Positions 1 to 10,739 of a stretch of 12,547 nucleotides of DNA are shown here, piece after piece. Every line of letters starts with the position of its first letter. Within the stretch, counting starts at the first letter, position 1. The stretch is from positions 83,394-95,940 of the IMG/VR virus record IMGVR_UViG_3300018432_000003; one strand, written 5' to 3'. Below the pieces are notes generated by a model. That model was given only the letters and a program-made list of their open reading frames with translations, was not told where the DNA came from and made no database searches. The translations under genes and the position numbers were made by a program. Origin of the DNA: a virus. Lineage: Duplodnaviria; Heunggongvirae; Uroviricota; Caudoviricetes.

Positions 1-3000
1 TGGTCGATTTCCTCATCGTTCTCGTCGTAGATTGTAAGACCTAGAATCTGGTCCTCAGTCTTAATGAGTCCACTTGCAGTCGCATACACACTGTGAGTGT
101 ACTGAGTGTTCGGCTGCACTGGAATTGAGAGGTCGTACATTCCATACTGCTCGTTTGGTGGTGTACCGTCAGGGCCGTAGTACTCTACGTAGTTGCCAGG
201 GAGGTAGTGCTTCCTCGCCATACCATCGTTAGAGAGGAATACCTCTCCCATGTGGAAGTCAAAGGTGTTTGTCACAGTGGCGTCCACCTCAACCGCACCT
301 ACTCGTACTGATGTCACATTACGGGTACCCCAACCTATACCAGTACGCATCTCAATCTGCTGCATCTCATCCTCGTGCGTGGCACTGTAGAATAGTCTCA
401 ATATACCGTTAGCGGTCCCAAGGTTCTCGCCTACTGCTTCGAAGAACAACCTCTCGCCCGCCTCAATACCATCACAGAAGGCATTCCAAGCCGATGAACC
501 GTTGAATCTCGACTGCAATCTACCACCAGGGGTTATCCTAACCTCGAACACAGGTCCAGTCGCGTCCCTAGCCTGCAACAGCGTTACATTACCACCGACA
601 GGCAAGTTGATGAACCGCTTCTGTGCGCCCAAGGCGAAAGAGGTATACCCTCCTGGTACAGTCCTTGTAGCATAACGTATGTTAGTACCTGTGTTGGTTA
701 TACGCATGCCGAACTCACTAGCCCTAGATGCAGAGAAGTCTCCCAAGGTGTTGGTTGCCGCACCAGACATGCTCCACGGTGAAGGAAGGGTGTTATCTTT
801 GAAGTTCATCCTGTCGATTATGTTACCAGTGTACTTCCAAGCTGCGTTCAGGTCCTCATTAATCCATCTGAACGCACCGTTCAATGTGCCGTGAGCACCG
901 TTGCCACTCTTGTCGTAAGTGGTCGTACCTTCCATCTCTGAAAGGTGGTAGTATAGGGCGAGCTTAGTTAGGTCATCTGCATCCTGTATGATGTTATCAT
1001 GGTTTGCGAGTACGGTTGCGCCAGTACGCCCAACTGTCCACACTCTCAACTCATATATCCTGCCAGTGAAGGCTCCTGGTGCGGAGGTAGTGCCACCAGT
1101 GTACCTGTACGTACCGTTGTTGTATCCTGCACTTATGTTACCACCGCTAGTGAATGCAGTGCTGGCAGCAGCGGTGCTTCCCGCAATAACCCCATTAACA
1201 TACTGAGTGACGCTAGTAGTGTTCCTCACCATTGATATGATGTATGTGCCGTGTTTGGTAACTGCGTTAGTGCTGTTAGTAGGGGTCGTCGCTATCGTGA
1301 CACCACCCTGCCATGCAGTAGACCTAATGAAACCAGACTCTACGTATATCAGATACCCGTTAGTGGCGTCACCCTCACGGTATAGAACCTGTCGAGTCGT
1401 TATATCCTCACCAGTCCTGAAACGTACTTCAACAGTCTTAACAGTCTGCGAGGTACCGTTCACCGGAGTGCTGTTCGGTATGCTGATGCCAGTGTCGTTA
1501 CCATTCATGGTGATACCCTGTATAGTCGGGTCCTCACCAGCGTTAACTACCTTGCAGTATCCTCCGTGCGGGTAGCTTTCCTCGTCAGGCTCCCACCAGT
1601 CAACCTTGTCCACCAGTGCGGCAGTCTTACGCTTGTTAGGTGCCATAGTGTGGAAGATACCATGACCCTTCCGTATGGTAGTGTAGTTCCTCACACCAAG
1701 GTCTGCGTTCGCACCATCACCGATGGTCTTGATTACCACTAGGTTCGTCTGTGCGTGCAAAGGAATACTGTCCCTCGCACGGGTGTTTCCAGTCCTAAAC
1801 CCAAGCTGGTACCTACCGTTACGCCTGTGTACACCGAGGGTACTCTGCTGTAGGAACGTCACGTTCGGCACGCCAGTTGCACTGTAGGAGTCAATCCTGT
1901 ACTCCATCAAGATATCAATGGCTTTACCAGTGACGTGCTTAGCCTGCTCAATGATAACCCTACCATTGAACTTCAACGAACTAAGCCCAATCCACCCATA
2001 CGGTGTTACAATGAGGTCGCCACGAGTGGCCTGCCCGTCAGTCTCGTCAACGGTCAACCTACCCTTCTCGTACGTCGTACGTGCATCCCTGTTGAACGTC
2101 CAATCCCTCGGACGTGACGTGGTACCACTAGTGTCAATCAACTGAGGGTTGTCTAGTGCATTGGTGAATACCGGCTGGTATATCCTTGGCACTTGATTAC
2201 TTGCTGTAATATCAAGTACAGTCGCAGGACTTGGCTCGCTCGGTTCATCACCGTCGTACAGTACCGCCTTAATCCTGTGCTTCCCGGTAAGCAGTCCACT
2301 GCTGTTCAGGGATACGGTTGCATCAACCGCAGTCATAGGCTCAGTAGGGTTGGCTATACCGCTCGTGTCCTTCTTGCTAGGCTCTCCCTTATCCAAGTTG
2401 AAGGAGGTCTTTCTCCAACCGTCTGGACCGTACACGTAAACCCACTGGTCCAACCTGAATACGTTGTCGGCACCCTTCTTTTTGACAGTCTGCCACTTAC
2501 CCCAATCCCCACCTTTACGGTAGCGGACGAATGGGGTCCAACCCTTGATGCTATCCTTCACCACATCGTTTAGGGACTTCACAGTTGGCCTGAACCTGTA
2601 ACGACGGTGGCTGTTCTCACCCATGTGCTTAATCTTGCTGGTCGTACCAACGCTGTGACCAGTTGCATCCACAAGCTGGTACCCCAACTGCACGTCGTAC
2701 GGCTTGTTCTTCTTGCGGTACCTCTGCCTGTCTATGTTAAATCCACCAGGACCGCCCCACTCTTCCAGCTTCGTCTTGTTACCAGTGTTGGCTCTCGTGC
2801 CAGTCTTTAGGGGTCCTCTGAACTCAACTACGTCATCCGGGTTATCGTCAACCCTGATTGCAAACTGCTCGAAGAATGGTGCGCTTAGTGCGGCGAGGCT
2901 TGTTGACTGCACGTTAGTCAGGTAGAACACAATCTCGTATGCATGCTTAGGTGGCTGTGGGATTATGAATGCCTTACCCAAGGAACCGCTCATCTGGAAT

Positions 3001-3503
3001 GCCTCAGTGCGTGTACCGATGAACCCTGCCGTAGTAGGGTCAGGTGTCGTCGTACGCTTCGGGTGCTTCATCCTCCATGCATGTGCAGCGCAGTACCATC
3101 CAGTTGGGTATGCCTTCTCGCCAGTGACGAATAGCACAGACCTCGGTGCTTCCGGCTGTGCGATGTCAACGTAGTCCCTAGTTTCAGGGAGGGGCGCACC
3201 GTTCACCAGCGGGTGGTCGAGGTCATAGAATGGCGTGTCACCTAGCGGCAGGGGCGAACCATTCTGCTCGCTGAACCTGTCGGTGTCAGCCGGTCCTTTG
3301 GCAAACACACCCCAACCGTCAGGCTTAGGTGCGTGCCCGAACTTCTGGTACTTCATCCTACCGTTGGCGTTCACTATGACGTTCAACGGGTCAGGGTTGA
3401 GGTTCCTGCTGGCAAGACCCGCATCCCCGAAGATGTCGGCCATCATATTAGAGTACTCTACTGCGAGTAGCTCGTGACCTCTGTCCTTAATGAGTGAACC
3501 CAT
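1..3503 (-). CDS. Large minor tail / baseplate-receptor-binding protein (>1167 aa, 3' end beyond window) with a LamG/concanavalin-A-like domain, a probable second jelly-roll domain and the start of a CBM-like module
   Basis: Manual translation from ATG at 3503 (3 nt after the TMP stop; SD-like AAGAGG in the last TMP codons) reads MGSLIKDRGHELLAVEYSNMMADIFGDAG... and stays open in one frame to position 3 (...GLTIYDENDEEID). It is absent from the ORF track, consistent with no stop inside the window. LamG-like core ~1510-1020 (VEVRFRTGEDITTRQVLYREG...YLIYV...VTQYVNG...FTGRIYELRVW), followed by LALYYHLSEMEGTTTYDKSGNGAHGTLNG. A CBM-like motif IPVQPNTQYTHSVYA lies near 80-140. Confidence 0.85.
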   Translation of the reverse strand, partial: MGSLIKDRGHELLAVEYSNMMADIFGDAGLASRNLNPDPLNVIVNANGRMKYQKFGHAPKPDGWGVFAKGPADTDRFSEQNGSPLPLGDTPFYDLDHPLVNGAPLPETRDYVDIAQPEAPRSVLFVTGEKAYPTGWYCAAHAWRMKHPKRTTTPDPTTAGFIGTRTEAFQMSGSLGKAFIIPQPPKHAYEIVFYLTNVQSTSLAALSAPFFEQFAIRVDDNPDDVVEFRGPLKTGTRANTGNKTKLEEWGGPGGFNIDRQRYRKKNKPYDVQLGYQLVDATGHSVGTTSKIKHMGENSHRRYRFRPTVKSLNDVVKDSIKGWTPFVRYRKGGDWGKWQTVKKKGADNVFRLDQWVYVYGPDGWRKTSFNLDKGEPSKKDTSGIANPTEPMTAVDATVSLNSSGLLTGKHRIKAVLYDGDEPSEPSPATVLDITASNQVPRIYQPVFTNALDNPQLIDTSGTTSRPRDWTFNRDARTTYEKGRLTVDETDGQATRGDLIVTPYGWIGLSSLKFNGRVIIEQAKHVTGKAIDILMEYRIDSYSATGVPNVTFLQQSTLGVHRRNGRYQLGFRTGNTRARDSIPLHAQTNLVVIKTIGDGANADLGVRNYTTIRKGHGIFHTMAPNKRKTAALVDKVDWWEPDEESYPHGGYCKVVNAGEDPTIQGITMNGNDTGISIPNSTPVNGTSQTVKTVEVRFRTGEDITTRQVLYREGDATNGYLIYVESGFIRSTAWQGGVTIATTPTNSTNAVTKHGTYIISMVRNTTSVTQYVNGVIAGSTAAASTAFTSGGNISAGYNNGTYRYTGGTTSAPGAFTGRIYELRVWTVGRTGATVLANHDNIIQDADDLTKLALYYHLSEMEGTTTYDKSGNGAHGTLNGAFRWINEDLNAAWKYTGNIIDRMNFKDNTLPSPWSMSGAATNTLGDFSASRASEFGMRITNTGTNIRYATRTVPGGYTSFALGAQKRFINLPVGGNVTLLQARDATGPVFEVRITPGGRLQSRFNGSSAWNAFCDGIEAGERLFFEAVGENLGTANGILRLFYSATHEDEMQQIEMRTGIGWGTRNVTSVRVGAVEVDATVTNTFDFHMGEVFLSNDGMARKHYLPGNYVEYYGPDGTPPNEQYGMYDLSIPVQPNTQYTHSVYATASGLIKTEDQILGLTIYDENDEEID

Positions 3504-3506
3504 GTA

Positions 3507-6500
3507 TTACCTCTTCGTCAATTCTCGCTCGAAGTCAACGTCACGCGATATGTGTTCGTTCACAATATCTCCCCCAATGTGAGGATTCTGTAGTATCTCC
3601 ATCATCATCTTCATTCCTGCACGCATGAACTTCTCTGCGTTTGCATCAGAGAGGTCCATCTCAGTCTGTATGAGTTCCTTGATTCGATTGTCCAGCTTGT
3701 TACCGACCTTATCGAATGCCTTCTCTATGGCAGCGTCAACCTTGTTCTCCGCCTTCTGTAGAGCCTGCTCTATACCGCCATCACGCTGACTGCCAGTACC
3801 CTGGTCGATTCTCTGCCCTGTACCTATCGCCTCACCGATTGCCTTATTCCGATGCATGGCACCACCACTAACCCTGTCGCTCATGTCGAACGCCTTCCGC
3901 ATCATGTTCAATGCACGGGGGTCATGGAGTGGTAGGTTAACCTCTGGACCACGGTCACCGATAACCCCTAGGTGTGGTCTAGTCACTACGCCACCGTTAC
4001 TGTATCCGGTTATCTTCTTGTTACCCATGTTCATGCTGCTGCTGCTCGGTGGGTATGCAGCCCAAGGACCCCAATCCTTACCGCCCTTAGACAGCTTGTT
4101 AGCTGCACTACTTGCGTACACAGGGTCACCCATCTTACTGTAAGACAGCCCCATACCTTCAGCAGTGCTCTTTAGGAACTGGAACAGTCCGTACGCGGTT
4201 GATGATGGGTTCTTAGCGCCTGCATTACCACCAGACTCTTCCCATGCAACACCTACGGCAGTGTCCCTCTTGCTTGCCGGGAATCCACCCTGCGTTATAG
4301 CTTCCATCATCGTAAGGCCAGGACCGGCGTTACCACTTACACCACCAGTGCCGCCAGTCGGCACCTTAGACATGTAGAATTCCTTAGCAGCTTCCCTTAC
4401 CTTGCTGCCCGCCATACTTGCAGCCTCACCTACCATACCGTAACCGAGGTTATTAGGCATGGTCGGCACTGCATCCTCGAACCACTTGTTGATTTCTTCC
4501 TGTGATGGTCCGCCACCTGTAGCCCCACCACGTCCTCCAGCACCACCGAGGTTCGGTGAGCCTCCTGGGTATGTAGCGTGGAGGTGGTCGTAGTGCATGT
4601 CACCAGGGTCATTGTACCTACGACTCCTGCCCCAACCTGTGATGATACCCTTCCAGATGTAGTACTCCATCTCTTTCTTGTGGTTCGCAAGGATGTACTT
4701 CTCTACCTTATCACCCTTACTACCAACCCTAGCACCACGTCCGCCTGGACCCCAGTGGTCTACTGAGTTCCCTTCGCCACCAGGGTGACCTACGTAGGTG
4801 TTTGTCGTGATGCCGCCGACAGCCTTCCTCGTAGCCTCCTGAATGCTCTTCGCAGGCTCGTTCCAGTTGTGCGTCGTAGCACCGAGATACTCGTAATCCA
4901 CACCACCACGGCGTGCTGGCAAGTCCTCATGCTCAGGACCGTGTGCCTTGTGAGCACGTGCAATCTTGCGGAAGTTATCATCAATCTGCTTGTCGTTATT
5001 CGGTATAGGATTCAGATTCCTGAGTACACCACCACGAGCCATCCACGCTGCGTTGCGGCTGTAATCCGCTGGCTTACCTAGCGGTACAGAACCCTTCCTG
5101 CCCTTGTTGAACCTCTGACGGAACTTACGCGCTGACCTACGTGCTGCACGCCTGTCCTTGGCAGTATCTTCCTTCTCCTGCCTCTCAGCCTGACGCTTCT
5201 CCTGCTTGCTCATTCCATCATCAGGGTTATTAGGGTTGCGGCCACCGCCGCCTCCGCCGCCACCGCGACCTCCACCACCGCCGCCACGTGCGCGAGCCTC
5301 ATGCTCCCTGTGCCACCACTTCTTCTCGGCACTTGAGATGTGTGACCTTGGTCCTACTGCGGCAGTCATTATTCCACGACTGCTGTGGCCTAGTCCACCA
5401 GCGTGTCCAAGCTCATGCTGTAGTATCGGACGGAGTACTGGTGAGCCTCTGAAGTTCGGGTCAACACCAATCGTACCGTTGCTGCCTGTACGTGCTGCAC
5501 CGATACCATGCTTGTAGAACACCCTAACATCACGTCCACGGCTGAACGTAGACGGTGCCTGCCAGCCCTGTGATGCCTTCAGTGCCCTACCACTTAGGGG
5601 TCCTCTCAAGCCTAGTTCGTGGTCACCACGCATGAGGTTGATTCTGCCCTTCTTGATGGCAGCAGCCTCGTAGTCAACACCGTTCTGCTTGTAGACTCCA
5701 GTGCGCTCATCATGTACAATCTCCCCACCCTTGGCGAAGTTCATGTGCTGATTAGCAGCCTGGAGAATCTCCATATTACGCTTGCGGTGCTTCTTATTGT
5801 CCGTGATGTAGAACTCAGTCGTCCCAGGTACCTCACCGTACACTCTGGTAGTACCCGCAGACACTCCACCGCTAGGACCCTGCTCGCCACCACTTCCATA
5901 CTTGATTACGTCACCAGTAGCAAGACGCCTCTGATGTGGTGTGAGTCCAGGACTGTCAGAACCACCACCTATGAGAGAACCCTTGTTGTAGATAACAGAG
6001 AACTGCTCAGGCTTCTTCATATCAATGTCAGCCTTGTCGATGAACCTTCCGATTCCCTCCAAGATTGCATTGAATGATTCCTGGGTCTGCGTTGAGGTCA
6101 TCCAAGCCTTTGAAACCCACTTCTGCTGTGCCTCAGTCATCGCGCCAGTGCCCTGCTCTTGCATGTCTACCAAGTCCTTGACAGACTCCTGCTGAGTTTT
6201 CTCAGTAGACTTGTTGACCTTAGTCTGCATGTCTAGCATCTTCATGCTTGATGCCAGCTTCAAGTCCTCAGAGGCGTTCGTACCACCCTTATTGAAGTCC
6301 CAGAAGTCCTTGATTCCGGTTTCCTTCATGCTACCAGTAGACTTGTTGGATGACTTCATTGCTTCGTTCATGTTGAAGTCAGTACCCTTGAACAAGTCCT
6401 TCATGGCGTTGTTACCACCACGTGCGGTATCCCACATGTTCTTCGTGGTGCCCTTCTCGCCCTCAGCACTCTTGTTCACCATAGCGAGCTTAGTCTTAGT

Positions 6501-9500
6501 CAACTGCTGCTCAGTGTTGAGAGAGAAGTCCTTGGTAGCCTTGGTACCCTTCTGGTTCATCTTATTCATGTTCATGATGGTACCCATAGTACCCTGCTTG
6601 CTGTTCTTCACCATGTCTGCGGCCATCTTGTTAGTGTCACCGCGAACCCAATTGGTGAAGCCCTTGAGGGCCTTCGTCATAGGGCCATCTTTCTTCCAGT
6701 CACCGAACATGATGTCGCCCAACTTGTTGTTACCGAACTTGCCACCAATCCAGTTGAACAACCCTGCGAACATCCTCTGTATGCTGTTTACGGTACCAGC
6801 CACACCACCGATGACTATACGCTGCATGCTCGACATCATCTGGCGTGCCATGTTGAACCACATCTTGCCGATGCTCATGTCACCCTTGCGCCACATCTTC
6901 ACTAGTCCGACGACTGTCGGCATGGTGCGGCGGGTTATCTCATTGTAGGCTGCACCCACCATACGCACTAGTACTTCGAAGGCAAGACCCACAATAGATA
7001 TACGTGCGAATGCGAGTGCAATCCCTCGCACTGCAATGGTTGACATCGCAGGCAGTACCTTCATGACACTAGCCCAACGCTTCGGTATCACCTTCCAGAC
7101 GCCAGAAATAACCCTCACTGACTCCCTGAACGGCTTCACCATCCACACTGCGGTCCTGACAGCAGCCTGACGCAATCCGAGTATCCTAGCAGATACCTTA
7201 CCGAATCCGATTGCCAGCCTAGCTAGACCAATCAGTACGCGGCTTCCGAAGAATATACGTAGGGCAATCCACGCGAGTGCAACCTCAGTGGCGAACTCAC
7301 GTACCGGCTGAGGTAGCCTGTTCCATAGGCGAACCATCCTGCCGATTAGGTGTGCCGTACCCATGACGATATCACCAATTCGGGTTATCCACTTGGCGAT
7401 TGTCTTAGGACCTTCCTTGCTCTGCGTTGCCCACTTGAGTAGCGCACCACCGATTCGTGTAATCTGCTTCCACAACGCCTGCGCGACTGGTGCAGCACTC
7501 TGGAAGAACCTCTTTATCTGCGCACGACCCTTCTCACTGTCAGTCCACTCTAGGAATCTACGTGAAGTCTCACGAACTGCCACTGCAAGACGCCTTGCGA
7601 ACGGCATCGCCTGACCCATGATGTTGATGAAGGCACCACCGAAGTTACCGATTGCCTGCGTCCAGTTCTTCGTGATGTTCGGCATTGTCTTGAGTATCTT
7701 CTGTAGACTCTCAATGACACCGAAGTTTCGGAAGTTACGTGATACCGTAGAGAGGGCCTTGTTAAGTCCCTGCACTGTCCTCTGTGCAGTCCTACCGAGT
7801 GCCGGTAGTGCCCTAGTACCGATGTTGATTAGGCGTGTAGCTAGGCGACCAGTGGCAACCTGTGCCCCTGCGAATGACCTAGTGTACACATTCTTGAACC
7901 TTGCGATAGCATTCTCGATAGCCTGTATATGCTTAGGGGTCTTGCCCATGAGGGCATTGAGAGCACTCTGCTTCTCTTTAACTTCCTGCTGAGCCTTCGC
8001 CATGTTGCGGTTGGCTTCCGCGAGCGCACGGTTGGCCTCAGCCATCTGCCTAGCAGCATCCTGACGTGCCCTACCGATTTCACGTTGAGCGCGACGTTCG
8101 TTACGCATCGCCTCCTGCACTGCACGCTGTGATTCCTGCGCTGTCCTCTGAGCCTCACGTATCTGACGGTTACCCTCAGCCCTCGCACGTGCAATCTCCT
8201 TCTCAGCCTGGGTAGCGTTACGCTGAGCGTCTGCAACCTCCCGCATTGCATCCACAACACCCTGCTGTGCATCCTTCTGCGAGTCTAGTGCCTGACGGCG
8301 TGCCTCCTGCGCACTCTGCAACTCATCAGTACCCTTCTTCTGGGCCTCATTGAGTTCCCTCTGCGCCTGACCCATGTCGAGGATGTTCTGCTTGCGCTGT
8401 AGCTCCAACTGCTGTAGTCTAAGCTGAGCTTCCTTACGCTCGCGGGGGTTCTCAGCCCTCTGCAACTCCATACGTGCTTCACGCATGTCGAATGCCAACT
8501 GCTTCTGGCTCAGACGCATACCTGATATGTCAAGCTGCATGCTGCGGAGCCTGAACTGCTCAGTTGCCAAGGCACTGTTGTACTCCTGAGTCGCAAACCT
8601 AACGTCACGAGTTGCATCACGTGCCTGCTCCTGTGCATCTGCGTAACTGTCCTGCGCTGACTGTACTTGGCGGAGTGCATCAGCGTGTGCCTGTATTGCA
8701 GACTGCACCCCTTCGTGTGCATCTCTCTCAGCCTCAGCGATACCCCGTACGGACTCTCCGTAGGCACGCTGTGCGTCAGTTACAGCCCTCTGTGCGTCAG
8801 CGTGTGCCTGTATTGCACCACGAATCTGCTCTTGACCGGCTCGGTATGCCTCCCCGACGCCTCTTTGTGCGTCTGCAACTGCCTGTGCGCTACTTGCTGC
8901 CGACTCCTGCGCAGACTTCAACTCATTCTGTGCAGTCTCAAGTTGGTTAGCCTTCTCTTCGGCGTTCGCAAAGTGGGATATGATAGGGGCAGCAGCCATC
9001 GCCACAAGACCAAAACCACCCGCCAGTGCGAGTAGTGATGACCCTAGTATAGTCAAGCCTGCCACCAACGGTCCAGCCGCAGCCACGGCAACTGCCATGA
9101 TTGCAACTCTGAATACGCTCATGGCTTGCTGCATTATGTAGACCTTCTGCGCGAATGACTGTGAAATCGGCTGCATAGTCTGGAGGGTTCCAGCTAGTGC
9201 CTTGAAACCAGCACCTACAGCAGTAGCCGCACCCCTAGCGGAGAGTAGGGAGCGGGTGTCAATCTTGATACTGTACGTACCCTCAACCTCATTCAACGCG
9301 ACCTTCATCAAGCCTGCATCACGCAGTACCTTCGGGACACCCTTCATCTCAGCAATCAACTGCATACGAGTGTTGTTGATGTCCTGCGCCTCACGCTTCA
9401 ATCTCGCTGCGTCAGCCATAACGTCAGTGAACCCGTCAGCTTCAGCCCTCATCTCAAGGACGTAAGCCCTCCGTGCCAACTCCCTAGCCTCAGCGCCTAC

Positions 9501-9878
9501 TGTGCGGATTGTACGCTCAGCCTCCGCTGAGTTAACCTTCAAGTCCATCACACTCGGGCGACGGGTCATGTTCTTTATGCGCTTCTCAAGGTCATACAGT
9601 TTGTTGACGCTAGTGTTCAGCTTCTTCTCGTCAACGCCTACCTCAGCTTCACCCTCCATGCCGTCGAACTTCTTGACTTTACGTTCGAGGTTATCAATGC
9701 GTGCGCCAGTTTCAGTAGCACCGTGTTCGGTGATACCTATGTCTGCATCTTCCTTTGATAGACTGTTAATCCTAGTCTGCAACTTCTCAAGCCTGCGCTC
9801 AAGGGCTGCAATGGTACGACCAGCCTTATTCTCGGCGGAGAATACCGCCTTCAGTTCATAGGTCTTACCTCTTGGCAT
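3507..9878 (-). CDS. Tape measure protein (2123 aa) with C-terminal putative metzincin, zinc-peptidase and lytic transglycosylase domains
   Basis: Longest ORF, directly downstream of the chaperone genes. It has a TMP-like N-terminus (YELKAVFSAENKAGRTIAALERRL), long Ala/Gln/Glu/Arg coiled coils, hydrophobic segments and a typical TMP C-terminal motif (YSNGGVVTRPHLGVIGDRGPEVNLPL). SD-like AGGGGG lies just upstream of ATG 9878. Confidence 0.95.
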   Translation of the reverse strand: MPRGKTYELKAVFSAENKAGRTIAALERRLEKLQTRINSLSKEDADIGITEHGATETGARIDNLERKVKKFDGMEGEAEVGVDEKKLNTSVNKLYDLEKRIKNMTRRPSVMDLKVNSAEAERTIRTVGAEARELARRAYVLEMRAEADGFTDVMADAARLKREAQDINNTRMQLIAEMKGVPKVLRDAGLMKVALNEVEGTYSIKIDTRSLLSARGAATAVGAGFKALAGTLQTMQPISQSFAQKVYIMQQAMSVFRVAIMAVAVAAAGPLVAGLTILGSSLLALAGGFGLVAMAAAPIISHFANAEEKANQLETAQNELKSAQESAASSAQAVADAQRGVGEAYRAGQEQIRGAIQAHADAQRAVTDAQRAYGESVRGIAEAERDAHEGVQSAIQAHADALRQVQSAQDSYADAQEQARDATRDVRFATQEYNSALATEQFRLRSMQLDISGMRLSQKQLAFDMREARMELQRAENPRERKEAQLRLQQLELQRKQNILDMGQAQRELNEAQKKGTDELQSAQEARRQALDSQKDAQQGVVDAMREVADAQRNATQAEKEIARARAEGNRQIREAQRTAQESQRAVQEAMRNERRAQREIGRARQDAARQMAEANRALAEANRNMAKAQQEVKEKQSALNALMGKTPKHIQAIENAIARFKNVYTRSFAGAQVATGRLATRLINIGTRALPALGRTAQRTVQGLNKALSTVSRNFRNFGVIESLQKILKTMPNITKNWTQAIGNFGGAFINIMGQAMPFARRLAVAVRETSRRFLEWTDSEKGRAQIKRFFQSAAPVAQALWKQITRIGGALLKWATQSKEGPKTIAKWITRIGDIVMGTAHLIGRMVRLWNRLPQPVREFATEVALAWIALRIFFGSRVLIGLARLAIGFGKVSARILGLRQAAVRTAVWMVKPFRESVRVISGVWKVIPKRWASVMKVLPAMSTIAVRGIALAFARISIVGLAFEVLVRMVGAAYNEITRRTMPTVVGLVKMWRKGDMSIGKMWFNMARQMMSSMQRIVIGGVAGTVNSIQRMFAGLFNWIGGKFGNNKLGDIMFGDWKKDGPMTKALKGFTNWVRGDTNKMAADMVKNSKQGTMGTIMNMNKMNQKGTKATKDFSLNTEQQLTKTKLAMVNKSAEGEKGTTKNMWDTARGGNNAMKDLFKGTDFNMNEAMKSSNKSTGSMKETGIKDFWDFNKGGTNASEDLKLASSMKMLDMQTKVNKSTEKTQQESVKDLVDMQEQGTGAMTEAQQKWVSKAWMTSTQTQESFNAILEGIGRFIDKADIDMKKPEQFSVIYNKGSLIGGGSDSPGLTPHQRRLATGDVIKYGSGGEQGPSGGVSAGTTRVYGEVPGTTEFYITDNKKHRKRNMEILQAANQHMNFAKGGEIVHDERTGVYKQNGVDYEAAAIKKGRINLMRGDHELGLRGPLSGRALKASQGWQAPSTFSRGRDVRVFYKHGIGAARTGSNGTIGVDPNFRGSPVLRPILQHELGHAGGLGHSSRGIMTAAVGPRSHISSAEKKWWHREHEARARGGGGGGRGGGGGGGGRNPNNPDDGMSKQEKRQAERQEKEDTAKDRRAARRSARKFRQRFNKGRKGSVPLGKPADYSRNAAWMARGGVLRNLNPIPNNDKQIDDNFRKIARAHKAHGPEHEDLPARRGGVDYEYLGATTHNWNEPAKSIQEATRKAVGGITTNTYVGHPGGEGNSVDHWGPGGRGARVGSKGDKVEKYILANHKKEMEYYIWKGIITGWGRSRRYNDPGDMHYDHLHATYPGGSPNLGGAGGRGGATGGGPSQEEINKWFEDAVPTMPNNLGYGMVGEAASMAGSKVREAAKEFYMSKVPTGGTGGVSGNAGPGLTMMEAITQGGFPASKRDTAVGVAWEESGGNAGAKNPSSTAYGLFQFLKSTAEGMGLSYSKMGDPVYASSAANKLSKGGKDWGPWAAYPPSSSSMNMGNKKITGYSNGGVVTRPHLGVIGDRGPEVNLPLHDPRALNMMRKAFDMSDRVSGGAMHRNKAIGEAIGTGQRIDQGTGSQRDGGIEQALQKAENKVDAAIEKAFDKVGNKLDNRIKELIQTEMDLSDANAEKFMRAGMKMMMEILQNPHIGGDIVNEHISRDVDFERELTKR
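4050..4310 (-). other. SLT/Rpf-like lytic transglycosylase domain within the TMP
   Basis: AVGVAWEESGGNAGAKNPSSTAYGLFQFLKSTA...DWGPW. It has the ES-GG catalytic Glu motif (codon 4236-4238, ~E1881), A-x-GLFQ and a terminal W-x-PW typical of lysozyme-like SLT/Rpf domains. Confidence 0.8.
4570..4860 (-). other. Putative zinc peptidase domain (H-x8-D ... HxDHxH; Hedgehog/DD-peptidase M15-like) within the TMP
   Basis: TYVGHPGGEGNSVD (H codon 4785-4787, D codon 4758-4760), YYIWKG, and MHYDHLHATY (4578-4595). Confidence 0.6.
5340..5560 (-). other. Putative metzincin (matrixin-like) zinc metalloprotease domain within the TMP
   Basis: ILQHELGHAGGLGHSSRGIMTA: a full HExxHxxGxxH (5385-5417) followed by a Met-turn candidate (ATG 5367-5369) and preceded by a beta-strand-like GTIGVD. 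Confidence 0.7.
6100..6560 (-). repeat. Degenerate ~43-44-aa (4x11) repeats in the TMP
   Basis: NKS...KD/NxWD...GG units recur at 43 and 44 aa spacing. An exact 14-bp DNA repeat cagtagacttgttg occurs at 6203-6216 and 6335-6348 (132 bp apart). Confidence 0.65.
8030..8870 (-). repeat. 39-aa-period coiled-coil repeats in the TMP
   Basis: Exact 21-bp repeat tcagcgtgtgcctgtattgca at 8680-8700 and 8797-8817 (117 bp apart; AIQAHADA twice). RQIREAQR and RQMAEANR are also 39 aa apart. Confidence 0.7.
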
Positions 9879-9885
9879 GTGCCCC

Positions 9886-10296
9886 CTACTTCTTCTTCTT
9901 AGACGCCGCCTCTGCCCTTGCTGCTTCCTCCGCTTGTTCGTCGCTCTCGGCTCGCTTGCGTGCGCTCTCTACTGCACGTATCGCATCAAGCCACTCAACT
10001 TCCTGGTCCTCGGTGCCTCCCCCGTGAGGCTTCTCATGGTCGAAGGTGTCCCACGTGAGCCAGTCCTGCATGGCATCTTGTGCCGCTTGCTTGACTTCCC
10101 TCGTGGGACGCAACTCGCTCTCTATCTTTCGATAGCCTTCCTTGAGCTTGTAATCCTTCTGACCCCGCGTTAGTCTGCTGCTTGACTCAGTTCTGAACCT
10201 GAGATACGCCGTGCGGTAGGTGTATCCTCCGGGGATGGCGTAGGGTCCTCTCCAACCTCCGTCGTCTGCTCGTCGGCCTTCTGACCGCCGCCCTTC
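9886..10296 (-). CDS. -1-frame extension of the tail assembly chaperone (lambda gpT-like; likely made as a ~284-aa G-T fusion)
   Basis: The frame is open from 10296 to TAG at 9886, overlaps the last 127 nt of the chaperone in the -1 frame and fills the gap to the TMP. It reads ...GPYAIPGGYTYRTAYLRFRTESSSRLTRGQKDYKLKEGYRKIESELRPTREVKQAAQDAMQDWLTWD...KKKK. No ATG occurs until far into the frame. Confidence 0.7.
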   Translation of the reverse strand, partial: EGRRSEGRRADDGGWRGPYAIPGGYTYRTAYLRFRTESSSRLTRGQKDYKLKEGYRKIESELRPTREVKQAAQDAMQDWLTWDTFDHEKPHGGGTEDQEVEWLDAIRAVESARKRAESDEQAEEAARAEAASKKKK

Positions 10297-10739
10297 TCAA
10301 CCTTCTCTTCCTTCTCCTTCTTCTCCATGTTTACGAGTGCAAGGTACTGTGCGAATACGAGGTTGAACGGGTACTGGCGGGCAAGGAAACGGTTCTTGTC
10401 TACGATGGTCTTTAGGACCTCTTCATACAAGTCAACGTCGTCCTCTTCGTCGCCCATACCAATGTCAGGGTAGTCGTCAATCGGGGAGTTTGATGTGAAC
10501 TGGATTTCTTCGTTACCGACCTTCATGCTTTTAAGGCCACGACGAACCACGATGTCCTCGATTGCTCCGGCAGGGATGTCTACACCCTCGAACATACCAG
10601 TCTCGCGCTCCAGTGAGTAATTAGAAAAGTAGTTACGGAGGTCACGCTTTACTGCCTGCTTCAAGCGATTAGCCTCCAACACTACACGGATGTTCCCTAC
10701 GTCGAAGGAACGGGGAGAATTGTAATACTGCTCTGCCAT
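10170..10739 (-). CDS. Tail assembly chaperone (lambda gpG-like position), 189 aa
   Basis: Acidic protein between the major tail gene and the TMP. SD GAAAGAGG upstream of ATG. It has an overlapping -1 ORF. Assignment is by synteny. Confidence 0.8.
   Translation of the reverse strand: MAEQYYNSPRSFDVGNIRVVLEANRLKQAVKRDLRNYFSNYSLERETGMFEGVDIPAGAIEDIVVRRGLKSMKVGNEEIQFTSNSPIDDYPDIGMGDEEDDVDLYEEVLKTIVDKNRFLARQYPFNLVFAQYLALVNMEKKEKEEKVEKGGGQKADEQTTEVGEDPTPSPEDTPTARRISGSELSQAAD
10242..10260 (-). promoter_or_regulatory. Candidate programmed -1 frameshift signal: internal SD GGAGGT, 10-nt spacer, then CCT codon (GAC CCT)
   Basis: GGAGGT at 10260-10255 has no usable start codon downstream. The CCT codon (10244-10242) can re-pair to CCC in the -1 frame. 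An alternative site is C CCG GAG (10233-10227). Confidence 0.4.

Follow-up and report, generated by a model that had tools for sequence, protein, structure and literature searches.

The tape measure protein and its enzyme domains

The stretch of DNA analysed here, called the window in the following, comprises 12,547 nucleotides at positions 83,394 to 95,940 of IMG/VR virus record IMGVR_UViG_3300018432_000003 (Caudoviricetes). It is the final 12.5 kb of this 95,940-bp record, which has direct terminal repeats and a completeness estimate of 100%. The window contains the longest gene of the record, coding for a tail tape measure protein (TMP) of 2123 amino acids (aa), referred to as P0001. The last ~800 residues of this TMP consist of three enzyme domains strung on disordered Gly/Arg-rich linkers, as judged from AlphaFold2 (AF2) modelling and amino acid composition. 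From the N- to the C-terminal side, these are a predicted mini-metzincin, a predicted zinc L,D-endopeptidase of the MT3 family and a predicted SLT lytic transglycosylase. The coordinates of all features are collected in Table 1.

Sequence comparison identifies P0001 as the TMP of a long-tailed phage, the identity already given to it in the original prediction, which was made from the sequence alone. Residues 606-815 match the PHROG TMP families phrog_6090 (E 5e-20) and phrog_4197 (E 4e-19). A third TMP family, phrog_167, matches residues 1711-2072 (E 6.4e-4), and the other PHROG TMP matches all fall inside residues 544-1114. Furthermore, the gene is located between a candidate chaperone pair and distal tail genes, an order common to two related contigs. 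A word-indexed search of 5.8 billion proteins retrieved 11 homologues of 1348-2410 aa, all of them metagenomic.

The same prediction had placed three catalytic motifs at residues ~1488, 1698-1767 and 1881, within window positions 3960-5960. These coordinates are correct, and the range (aa 1307-1973) covers all three domains. The motifs are more than chance occurrences, because their catalytic residues are invariant in 12 aligned sequences for MT3 and SLT and in 42 for the metzincin. In addition, all three lie in confidently predicted globular folds.

Table 1. Features of the window, in order of position
Feature	Residues of P0001	Window position	Strand	Basis
Large tail protein downstream of the TMP, with concanavalin-like lectin domain		3..3503	(-)	Pfam Laminin_G_3, 30 bits
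Tape measure protein gene (P0001)	1-2123	3507..9878	(-)	Open reading frame (ORF) translates without stop; PHROG TMP families
Helical C-terminal tail of the TMP	2059-2123	3510..3704	(-)	Own hidden Markov model (HMM), 11 of 12 close homologues; predicted helices
Downstream conserved module, YSNGGVV and IGDRGPEVNLPL	1949-1999	3882..4034	(-)	Kept in 11 of 12 homologues
Predicted SLT / GH23 lytic transglycosylase domain	1842-1949	4032..4355	(-)	Pfam, alignment, AF2
Predicted MT3 / VldE-type LAS (clan MD) zinc L,D-endopeptidase domain	1661-1774	4557..4898	(-)	Profile, Foldseek, alignment
Linker with poly-Gly/Arg run, conserved basic helix and A-x-GG-V motif	1534-1660	4899..5279	(-)	Composition, AF2, alignment
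Predicted mini-metzincin (matrixin-like) zinc endopeptidase domain	1392-1533	5280..5705	(-)	AF2, Foldseek, VIA-align, profile
Zinc-binding consensus HELGHAGGLGH and Met-turn Met1504	1488-1498 and 1504	5367..5417	(-)	Alignment, 42 sequences
Upstream conserved module, core YGEVPGTTEFYITDN	1320-1386	5721..5921	(-)	12-homologue alignment, own HMM
N-terminal helical and hydrophobic ruler part	~1300 aa	5979..9878	(-)	PHROG TMP matches, hydrophobic segments
Candidate tail assembly chaperone pair		9886..10739	(-)	189-aa ORF 10170-10739 and overlapping open frame 9886-10296, directly upstream of the TMP gene

The metzincin domain

An exhaustive profile search of 1.84 billion cluster representatives with the metzincin domain gave 395 matches at E ≤0.001. 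The best 150 of the 395 were inspected, and those covering most of the domain form an alignment of 42 sequences.

The signature HELGHAGGLGH (window 5385-5417) follows the metzincin pattern HEXXHXXGXXH/D, including the general-base glutamate. It is followed by SSRGIMT, which contains the Met-turn Met1504, five residues separating this methionine from His1498. Across the 42 sequences, whose mean column identity is 24%, neither the zinc-motif residues H, E, G, H and H nor the Met-turn methionine vary. Since the catalytic residues are invariant at this degree of divergence, we predict that the domain is an active enzyme under selection.

The AF2 model built on the 42-sequence alignment has a predicted local distance difference test score (pLDDT) of 93 and a predicted template modelling score (pTM) of 0.87. 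In an earlier model of 824 aa, based on 12 sequences, the pLDDT of the metzincin was about 45-55, and the prediction became confident after the 42-sequence alignment. The fold core spans aa ~1412-1533 (window 5280-5645). It contains the strands and the helices expected of a metzincin, namely H38-48, H91-102, which bears HExxH, and H125-139 (model numbering).

Structural comparisons place the model among known metzincins. Foldseek returned the catalytic domains of the matrix metalloproteinases (MMPs) MMP-7, MMP-12 and MMP-1 (E 1e-4, template modelling (TM) score 0.5-0.62). VIA-align, which is independent of Foldseek, aligned MMP-2 with Z 11.2 over 119 residues at 2.9 A, snapalysin with Z 11.1 (112 of 134 residues) and astacin with Z 10.3. 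Metzincins fill its top ~35 rows, with Z 8-11.2 to MMPs, snapalysin, astacin, serralysin and archaemetzincin. Furthermore, small bacterial matrixins in AFDB and the ESM Atlas reach TM 0.69-0.75 to the model. A profile of eight TMP metzincin copies likewise matched the catalytic domains of MMP-7 and MMP-12 (E 6e-5) as well as snapalysin (E 1.7e-3).

The Pfam model Peptidase_M10 (PF00413) scores 13-16.5 bits, below its cut-off of 24, and the alignment is confined to the zinc helix region. More distant carriers of the same domain pass this cut-off (P0146 with 54 bits, P0109 with 35 bits). A cysteine-switch propeptide (PRCGxPD) is absent, the protein being without any cysteine. Taken as modelled, the domain at aa ~1412-1533 is a real, minimal metzincin fold, in agreement with what the motif had first suggested.

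The MT3 and SLT domains

The second domain carries GHPGGEGNSVDH at aa 1697-1708 (H1698-x8-D1707) and HYDHLH at aa 1762-1767 (window 4578-4595). No substitution of H1698, D1707, H1762, H1765 or H1767 occurs in the 12 homologues (24-58% identity), and W1742 is nearly invariant. The closest structures are those of VldE (Spr1875) of Streptococcus pneumoniae. A profile of the 12 sequences matched the PDB entry 9flh, the C-terminal domain of VldE, over 101 profile positions (E 5.8e-8; 9flh and 9fln are labelled 'LysM domain-containing protein'). With the AF2 model of aa 1300-2123, in which the MT3 domain has a pLDDT of about 80, the top five PDB matches of Foldseek are all VldE: 9flj, 9flk, 9fln, 9flm and 9flh, four wild-type forms and one H373A mutant (TM by target 0.67-0.70).

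VldE is a zinc L,D-endopeptidase of clan MD that acts on the stem peptide of peptidoglycan, cleaving between L-Ala and D-iGlu. H301, D308 and H375 coordinate its catalytic zinc, with H370 and H373 nearby, and its structural neighbours are M15-type enzymes (PMC11667670). The residues H1698, D1707, H1762, H1765 and H1767 of P0001 correspond to H301, D308, H370, H373 and H375, respectively. The domain was named MT3 after motif 3 of the TMP of mycobacteriophage TM4 (PMC11667670).

Membership in a Pfam M15 family was considered and rejected, no Pfam family matching aa 1640-1790 even at E 10. The original description as an M15-like zinc peptidase therefore holds at the level of the clan-MD/LAS fold only, and the family is MT3/VldE. 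From profile and model we predict that aa 1661-1774 are an MT3/VldE-family zinc L,D-endopeptidase, as known from the TM4 TMP.

The third domain is the only one recognized by Pfam above its cut-offs, both SLT_3 (31.6-34.4 bits, cut-off 27) and SLT (29.1-29.2 bits, cut-off 21.3) being passed, which bears out the lytic transglycosylase initially proposed. WEESGG occupies aa 1879-1884, and E1881-S1882 are invariant in 12 homologues. A GLMQ-like motif is present as YGLFQF (aa 1896-1901) with L1898 invariant. The domain is modelled with a pLDDT of about 85, and its Foldseek neighbours are lysozymes, MltE, MltF, Slt70 and phiKZ gp144. Both lines identify aa 1842-1949 as a predicted SLT lytic transglycosylase.

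Occurrence of the domain combination

Our own domain HMMs were used to score every retrieved protein with 800 or more aa (n=30). A full-length metzincin is present in 21 of these 30 proteins. It occurs with MT3 in 19, 14 of which also have SLT, and two full-length metzincins stand without MT3. Three domain orders were found: metzincin-MT3-SLT, MT3-SLT-metzincin and SLT-metzincin-MT3.

In reference collections the picture is different. Searches by tblastn with the whole C-terminus, MT3 alone or the metzincin alone gave no match among 50,697 GenBank phages, for the metzincin even at E 1. PHROGs gave no match for aa 1300-1560 or aa 1600-1800, and only stray matches when searched with the 12 MT3 and 42 metzincin sequences. 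BFVD contained no metzincin match to TMPs, the matches being solely insect-virus MMPs and small stand-alone phage M10 proteins. The searchable literature on tape measure proteins with a metzincin or HEXXH motif held nothing relevant. Hence, a TMP with a metzincin was found neither in PHROGs nor among the 50,697 GenBank phages, and none turned up in the searchable literature.

The combination of metzincin, MT3 and SLT was not found in these collections, yet it is shuffled among metagenomic relatives. It is therefore rare, modular and recurrent, and not common, so that its presentation as something unusual stands after the database search. What is new is the metzincin and the triple cassette. 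Since MT3 and SLT domains in TMPs are already established, only these two aspects are out of the ordinary.

The metzincin is also found outside TMPs. A 763-aa metagenomic protein (L006:1157-3448 (+)), encoded beside a TrbL-like gene, combines SLT, metzincin, M23 and NlpC/P60 domains; its sequence suggests a wall hydrolase with four enzymes that belongs to a conjugation-type system. In another non-TMP protein the metzincin is fused to SLT alone. Several small relatives start with lipoprotein-type signal sequences, and in an ESM Atlas cluster the same fold is joined to choline-binding wall repeats.

Comparison with known systems

The closest parallel among TMPs is gp17 of mycobacteriophage TM4, which likewise has an embedded MT3 with a conserved central tryptophan (W1742 in P0001) and the H...D...HxDHxH arrangement (PMC1796659). 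MT3 proteins hydrolyse peptidoglycan, deletion of MT3 shortens the TM4 tail, and the mutant injects its DNA less well into stationary-phase cells (Piuri & Hatfull 2006, PMC1796659). By analogy, the MT3 of P0001 would be expected to ease the passage of DNA across walls that are thick or highly cross-linked. In TM4 gp17 (1229 aa) MT3 is the sole lytic motif reported (PMC1796659), whereas in P0001 it is flanked by the metzincin and SLT.

P0001 and the pneumococcal VldE MT3 (PDB 9flh-9fln) belong to the same family by profile and fold, and the His/Asp/His ligands as well as the extra histidines of HYDHxH are kept. Unlike the phage protein, VldE is cellular and LysM-anchored and has an H-x6-D spacing; P0001 has H-x8-D, and its relatives range from x8 to x13. 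Arg294 of VldE has no conserved counterpart in the 12-homologue alignment.

TMPs with lytic transglycosylase domains are well known, those of enterococcal phages being one example (PMC10194240). The SP-beta prophage of Bacillus subtilis encodes CwlP (YomI), a 252-kDa protein which, like P0001, is a very large tail protein with glycan-cleaving and zinc endopeptidase domains (Sudiarta et al. 2010, via PMC5380687). With its muramidase and DD-endopeptidase, CwlP is an established precedent for a multi-enzyme virion-associated lysin (PMC5380687). It differs from P0001 in having two lytic domains, no metzincin and no MT3. The CwlP endopeptidase belongs to family M23. A review of 2017 described virion lysins as mostly single-domain, with five having two lytic domains (CwlP among them) and none having three (PMC5380687).

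The metzincin itself resembles matrixins (M10; MMP-2, 1eak) and snapalysin (M7; Streptomyces caespitosus, 4hx3) in its HExxHxxGxxH motif, Met-turn, and β-sheet with three helices. Its length of about 122-142 aa is comparable to that of snapalysin (132-134 aa) and puts it level with the smallest known metzincins. The third zinc ligand of snapalysin is an aspartate, that of the P0001 metzincin a histidine. In contrast to matrixins, the domain scores below the Peptidase_M10 cut-off, has no cysteine-switch propeptide and is embedded in a phage TMP.

Lastly, the wall hydrolases of Gram-positive conjugation systems of the PrgK/TcpG type carry SLT with M23/LytM and CHAP/NlpC-P60 domains. The 763-aa metzincin relative is similar to them in uniting several wall-cutting activities on one polypeptide that would open a channel through the wall. 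PrgK/TcpG-type proteins are not TMPs, and the conjugation link rests on one weak TrbL match.

Other parts of the protein and neighbouring genes

The ruler part of the TMP contains hydrophobic segments at aa 248-303, 866-886 and 947-978. The complete lack of cysteine is unusual for a protein of 2123 aa and fits one that has to be unfolded and to fold again outside the cytoplasm. The residues preceding the cassette, aa ~1125-1300 (window 5980-6500 (-)), are rich in Lys, Asn, Met and Thr and look internally repetitive. The G+C content of this DNA is about 0.50, compared with 0.55-0.57 nearby.

Conserved modules flank the cassette on both sides, with YGEVPGTTEFYITDN as the core of the upstream and IGDRGPEVNLPL as that of the downstream one. 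In the upstream module a G-E-V-P ... E-x-Y ... D pattern is nearly invariant in 12 homologues, and among related proteins with 800 or more aa our own HMM detected this module in 16. AF2 models it, with low confidence, as a β-hairpin and a helix, and the downstream module is modelled likewise, again with low confidence. The linker between the metzincin and MT3 has 21 Gly and 19 Arg in 127 aa, and its pLDDT is below 50 except for one helix. A stretch of it, R-x-A-R-x-F-R-x-R-F-N ... D-Y-S-x-N-A-x-W-M-A-x-G-G, is conserved among homologues.

A short motif, an aromatic residue or Met followed by A/S-x-GG-V/I, stands directly before the metzincin, MT3 and terminal modules (aa 1382, 1614 and 1960; window 3927-5921 (-)). 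The same motif is seen in distant relatives, as FATGGV before the metzincin of P0015 and as MARGGIL before MT3 of P0021 and P0031. Its enrichment is modest, 10 of 2000 shuffles reaching the observed C-terminal count with a loose pattern. The motif may mark cassette junctions. Finally, a weak match to the last 47 residues of the TMP (37% identity, E 3e-5) was noticed at G000:C1:28199-28336 (+) (locus L002), within a 116-aa open frame.

Upstream of the TMP gene, the open frame 9886-10296 overlaps the 3′ end of the 189-aa ORF with the offset of a -1 frameshift, as in the chaperones G/GT. No canonical slippery heptamer was seen by eye in the overlap. Judged by sequence, the two frames look like a tail assembly chaperone pair. 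A pair of ~170-190-aa and ~82-aa ORFs also precedes the TMP on the metagenomic P0005 and P0015 contigs. Downstream, the large tail protein is cut by the window edge and has 1469 aa in the full genome; genes of 1256-1345 aa occupy the syntenic position 3′ of the TMP on the same two contigs. The genes neighbouring the TMP had no PHROG match, and Pfam gave just the lectin-like domain of the downstream tail protein.

Megablast of the whole window against the 50,697 GenBank phages found no match. Pattern scans of GTDB species genomes and IMG/VR, based on a seven-sequence alignment, gave no confirmed relative and no prophage. The capsid and terminase proteins are 27-30% identical to proteins of Arthrobacter, Gordonia, Mycobacterium, Corynebacterium and Streptomyces phages, and an actinobacterium, or another Gram-positive bacterium, is a plausible host.

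Proposed function

We consider it likely that this TMP acts as a string of wall-breaching enzymes ejected at infection, the metzincin being directed at the host envelope. This proposal draws on sequence, structural models and the analogy with TM4. The first ~1300 residues would form the helical ruler and the last ~800 a beads-on-a-string cassette of three independently folding enzymes. At infection, the TMP would leave the tail tube and its domains would fold in the wall. There, the wall domains could open a local hole for DNA entry, as has been shown for the MT3 of TM4. MT3 would cut the L-Ala-D-iGlu stem bond as in VldE, SLT would cut the glycan strand, and the metzincin would supply a third envelope-directed activity. 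Three different chemistries had been anticipated in the original prediction: there are three separate catalytic domains, but two of them are zinc peptidases.

Two kinds of substrate may be considered for the metzincin. The enzyme could well cut peptidoglycan, either in its stems or in interpeptide bridges made of L-amino acids or glycine, although we would stop short of calling this probable. Alternatively, and this is a tentative suggestion, it might cut wall-associated proteins such as S-layer proteins, lipoproteins or surface-anchored proteins. More broadly, the mini-metzincin could represent a new class of cell-wall endopeptidase, the first metzincin to cut peptidoglycan bridges or stems, and a portable cassette spread by mobile elements in both TMPs and conjugation-type wall hydrolases; we regard this wider idea as rather doubtful.

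Several observations weigh against an envelope-directed metzincin. The domain is dispensable, as it is missing from 4 of the 12 closest homologues, which do possess MT3 and SLT. Hints at the host and its wall type are limited to the 27-30% identity of capsid and terminase to actinobacteriophage proteins. Furthermore, an association with wall hydrolases, being a matter of domain architecture, cannot separate a peptidoglycan from a wall-protein substrate. Every metzincin characterised so far cleaves proteins or peptides built of L-amino acids, and none is known to act on peptidoglycan, so that a peptidoglycan substrate would be a first.

Instead of the wall, the metzincin might process the TMP itself. 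In such a scheme it would cut the linkers of its own polypeptide, during tail assembly or after ejection, and free MT3 and SLT. Cleavage during tail assembly is known for lambda gpH and T5 pb2. Metzincins are protein endopeptidases, and this one is part of a chain of domains that resembles a polyprotein, its long linkers being disordered and rich in Gly and Arg. As there is neither a cysteine-switch propeptide nor any cysteine, its activity may instead be governed by the folding state. However, the same domain occurs where there is no TMP to process, in the 763-aa protein with SLT, M23 and NlpC/P60 and in the small proteins with lipoprotein signals; four close homologues retain MT3 and SLT without it, and no conserved cleavage site was identified. 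We therefore think self-processing improbable. The fusions to wall hydrolases, the lipoprotein-type signals of several small relatives and the link of the fold to choline-binding repeats favour an extracytoplasmic and wall-directed role over TMP processing alone.

The same features speak against an ejected effector whose targets would be host proteins located at the membrane or further inside, defence or envelope-stress proteins for instance. TMPs do enter the envelope before the DNA, the hydrophobic segments suggest membrane insertion, and the catalytic residues are intact. Yet the fusion partners of the metzincin are exclusively wall hydrolases, the secretion and lipoprotein signals of its small relatives point to extracytoplasmic action, and nothing points to a cytoplasmic target, which leaves this role very unlikely. 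Least credible of all is a catalytically dead or purely structural domain, for instance one that serves the tail tip as a spacer or for docking: some relatives lack the domain and the Peptidase_M10 scores are under the gathering cut-off, but three histidines, the general-base glutamate and the Met-turn methionine would hardly stay invariant across 42 sequences of such low mean identity.

Biological significance

Whether a phage can deliver its DNA across a thick or stationary-phase wall is decided by virion-associated lysins, which are also explored as a source of antibacterial enzymes. The TMP described here has three predicted catalytic domains, against five virion lysins with two domains in the 2017 review (PMC5380687). 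If the metzincin, with its ~125 residues, acts on the wall, it would extend the means of phage entry by a further class of enzyme, and it would also offer a protease scaffold that is very small, lacks cysteine and is easy to express. If instead it processes its own protein, it would provide a mechanism for TMP maturation or for the release of the lytic modules. Under either reading, the shuffled metzincin, MT3 and SLT cassettes show that tail lysins are assembled in a modular way.

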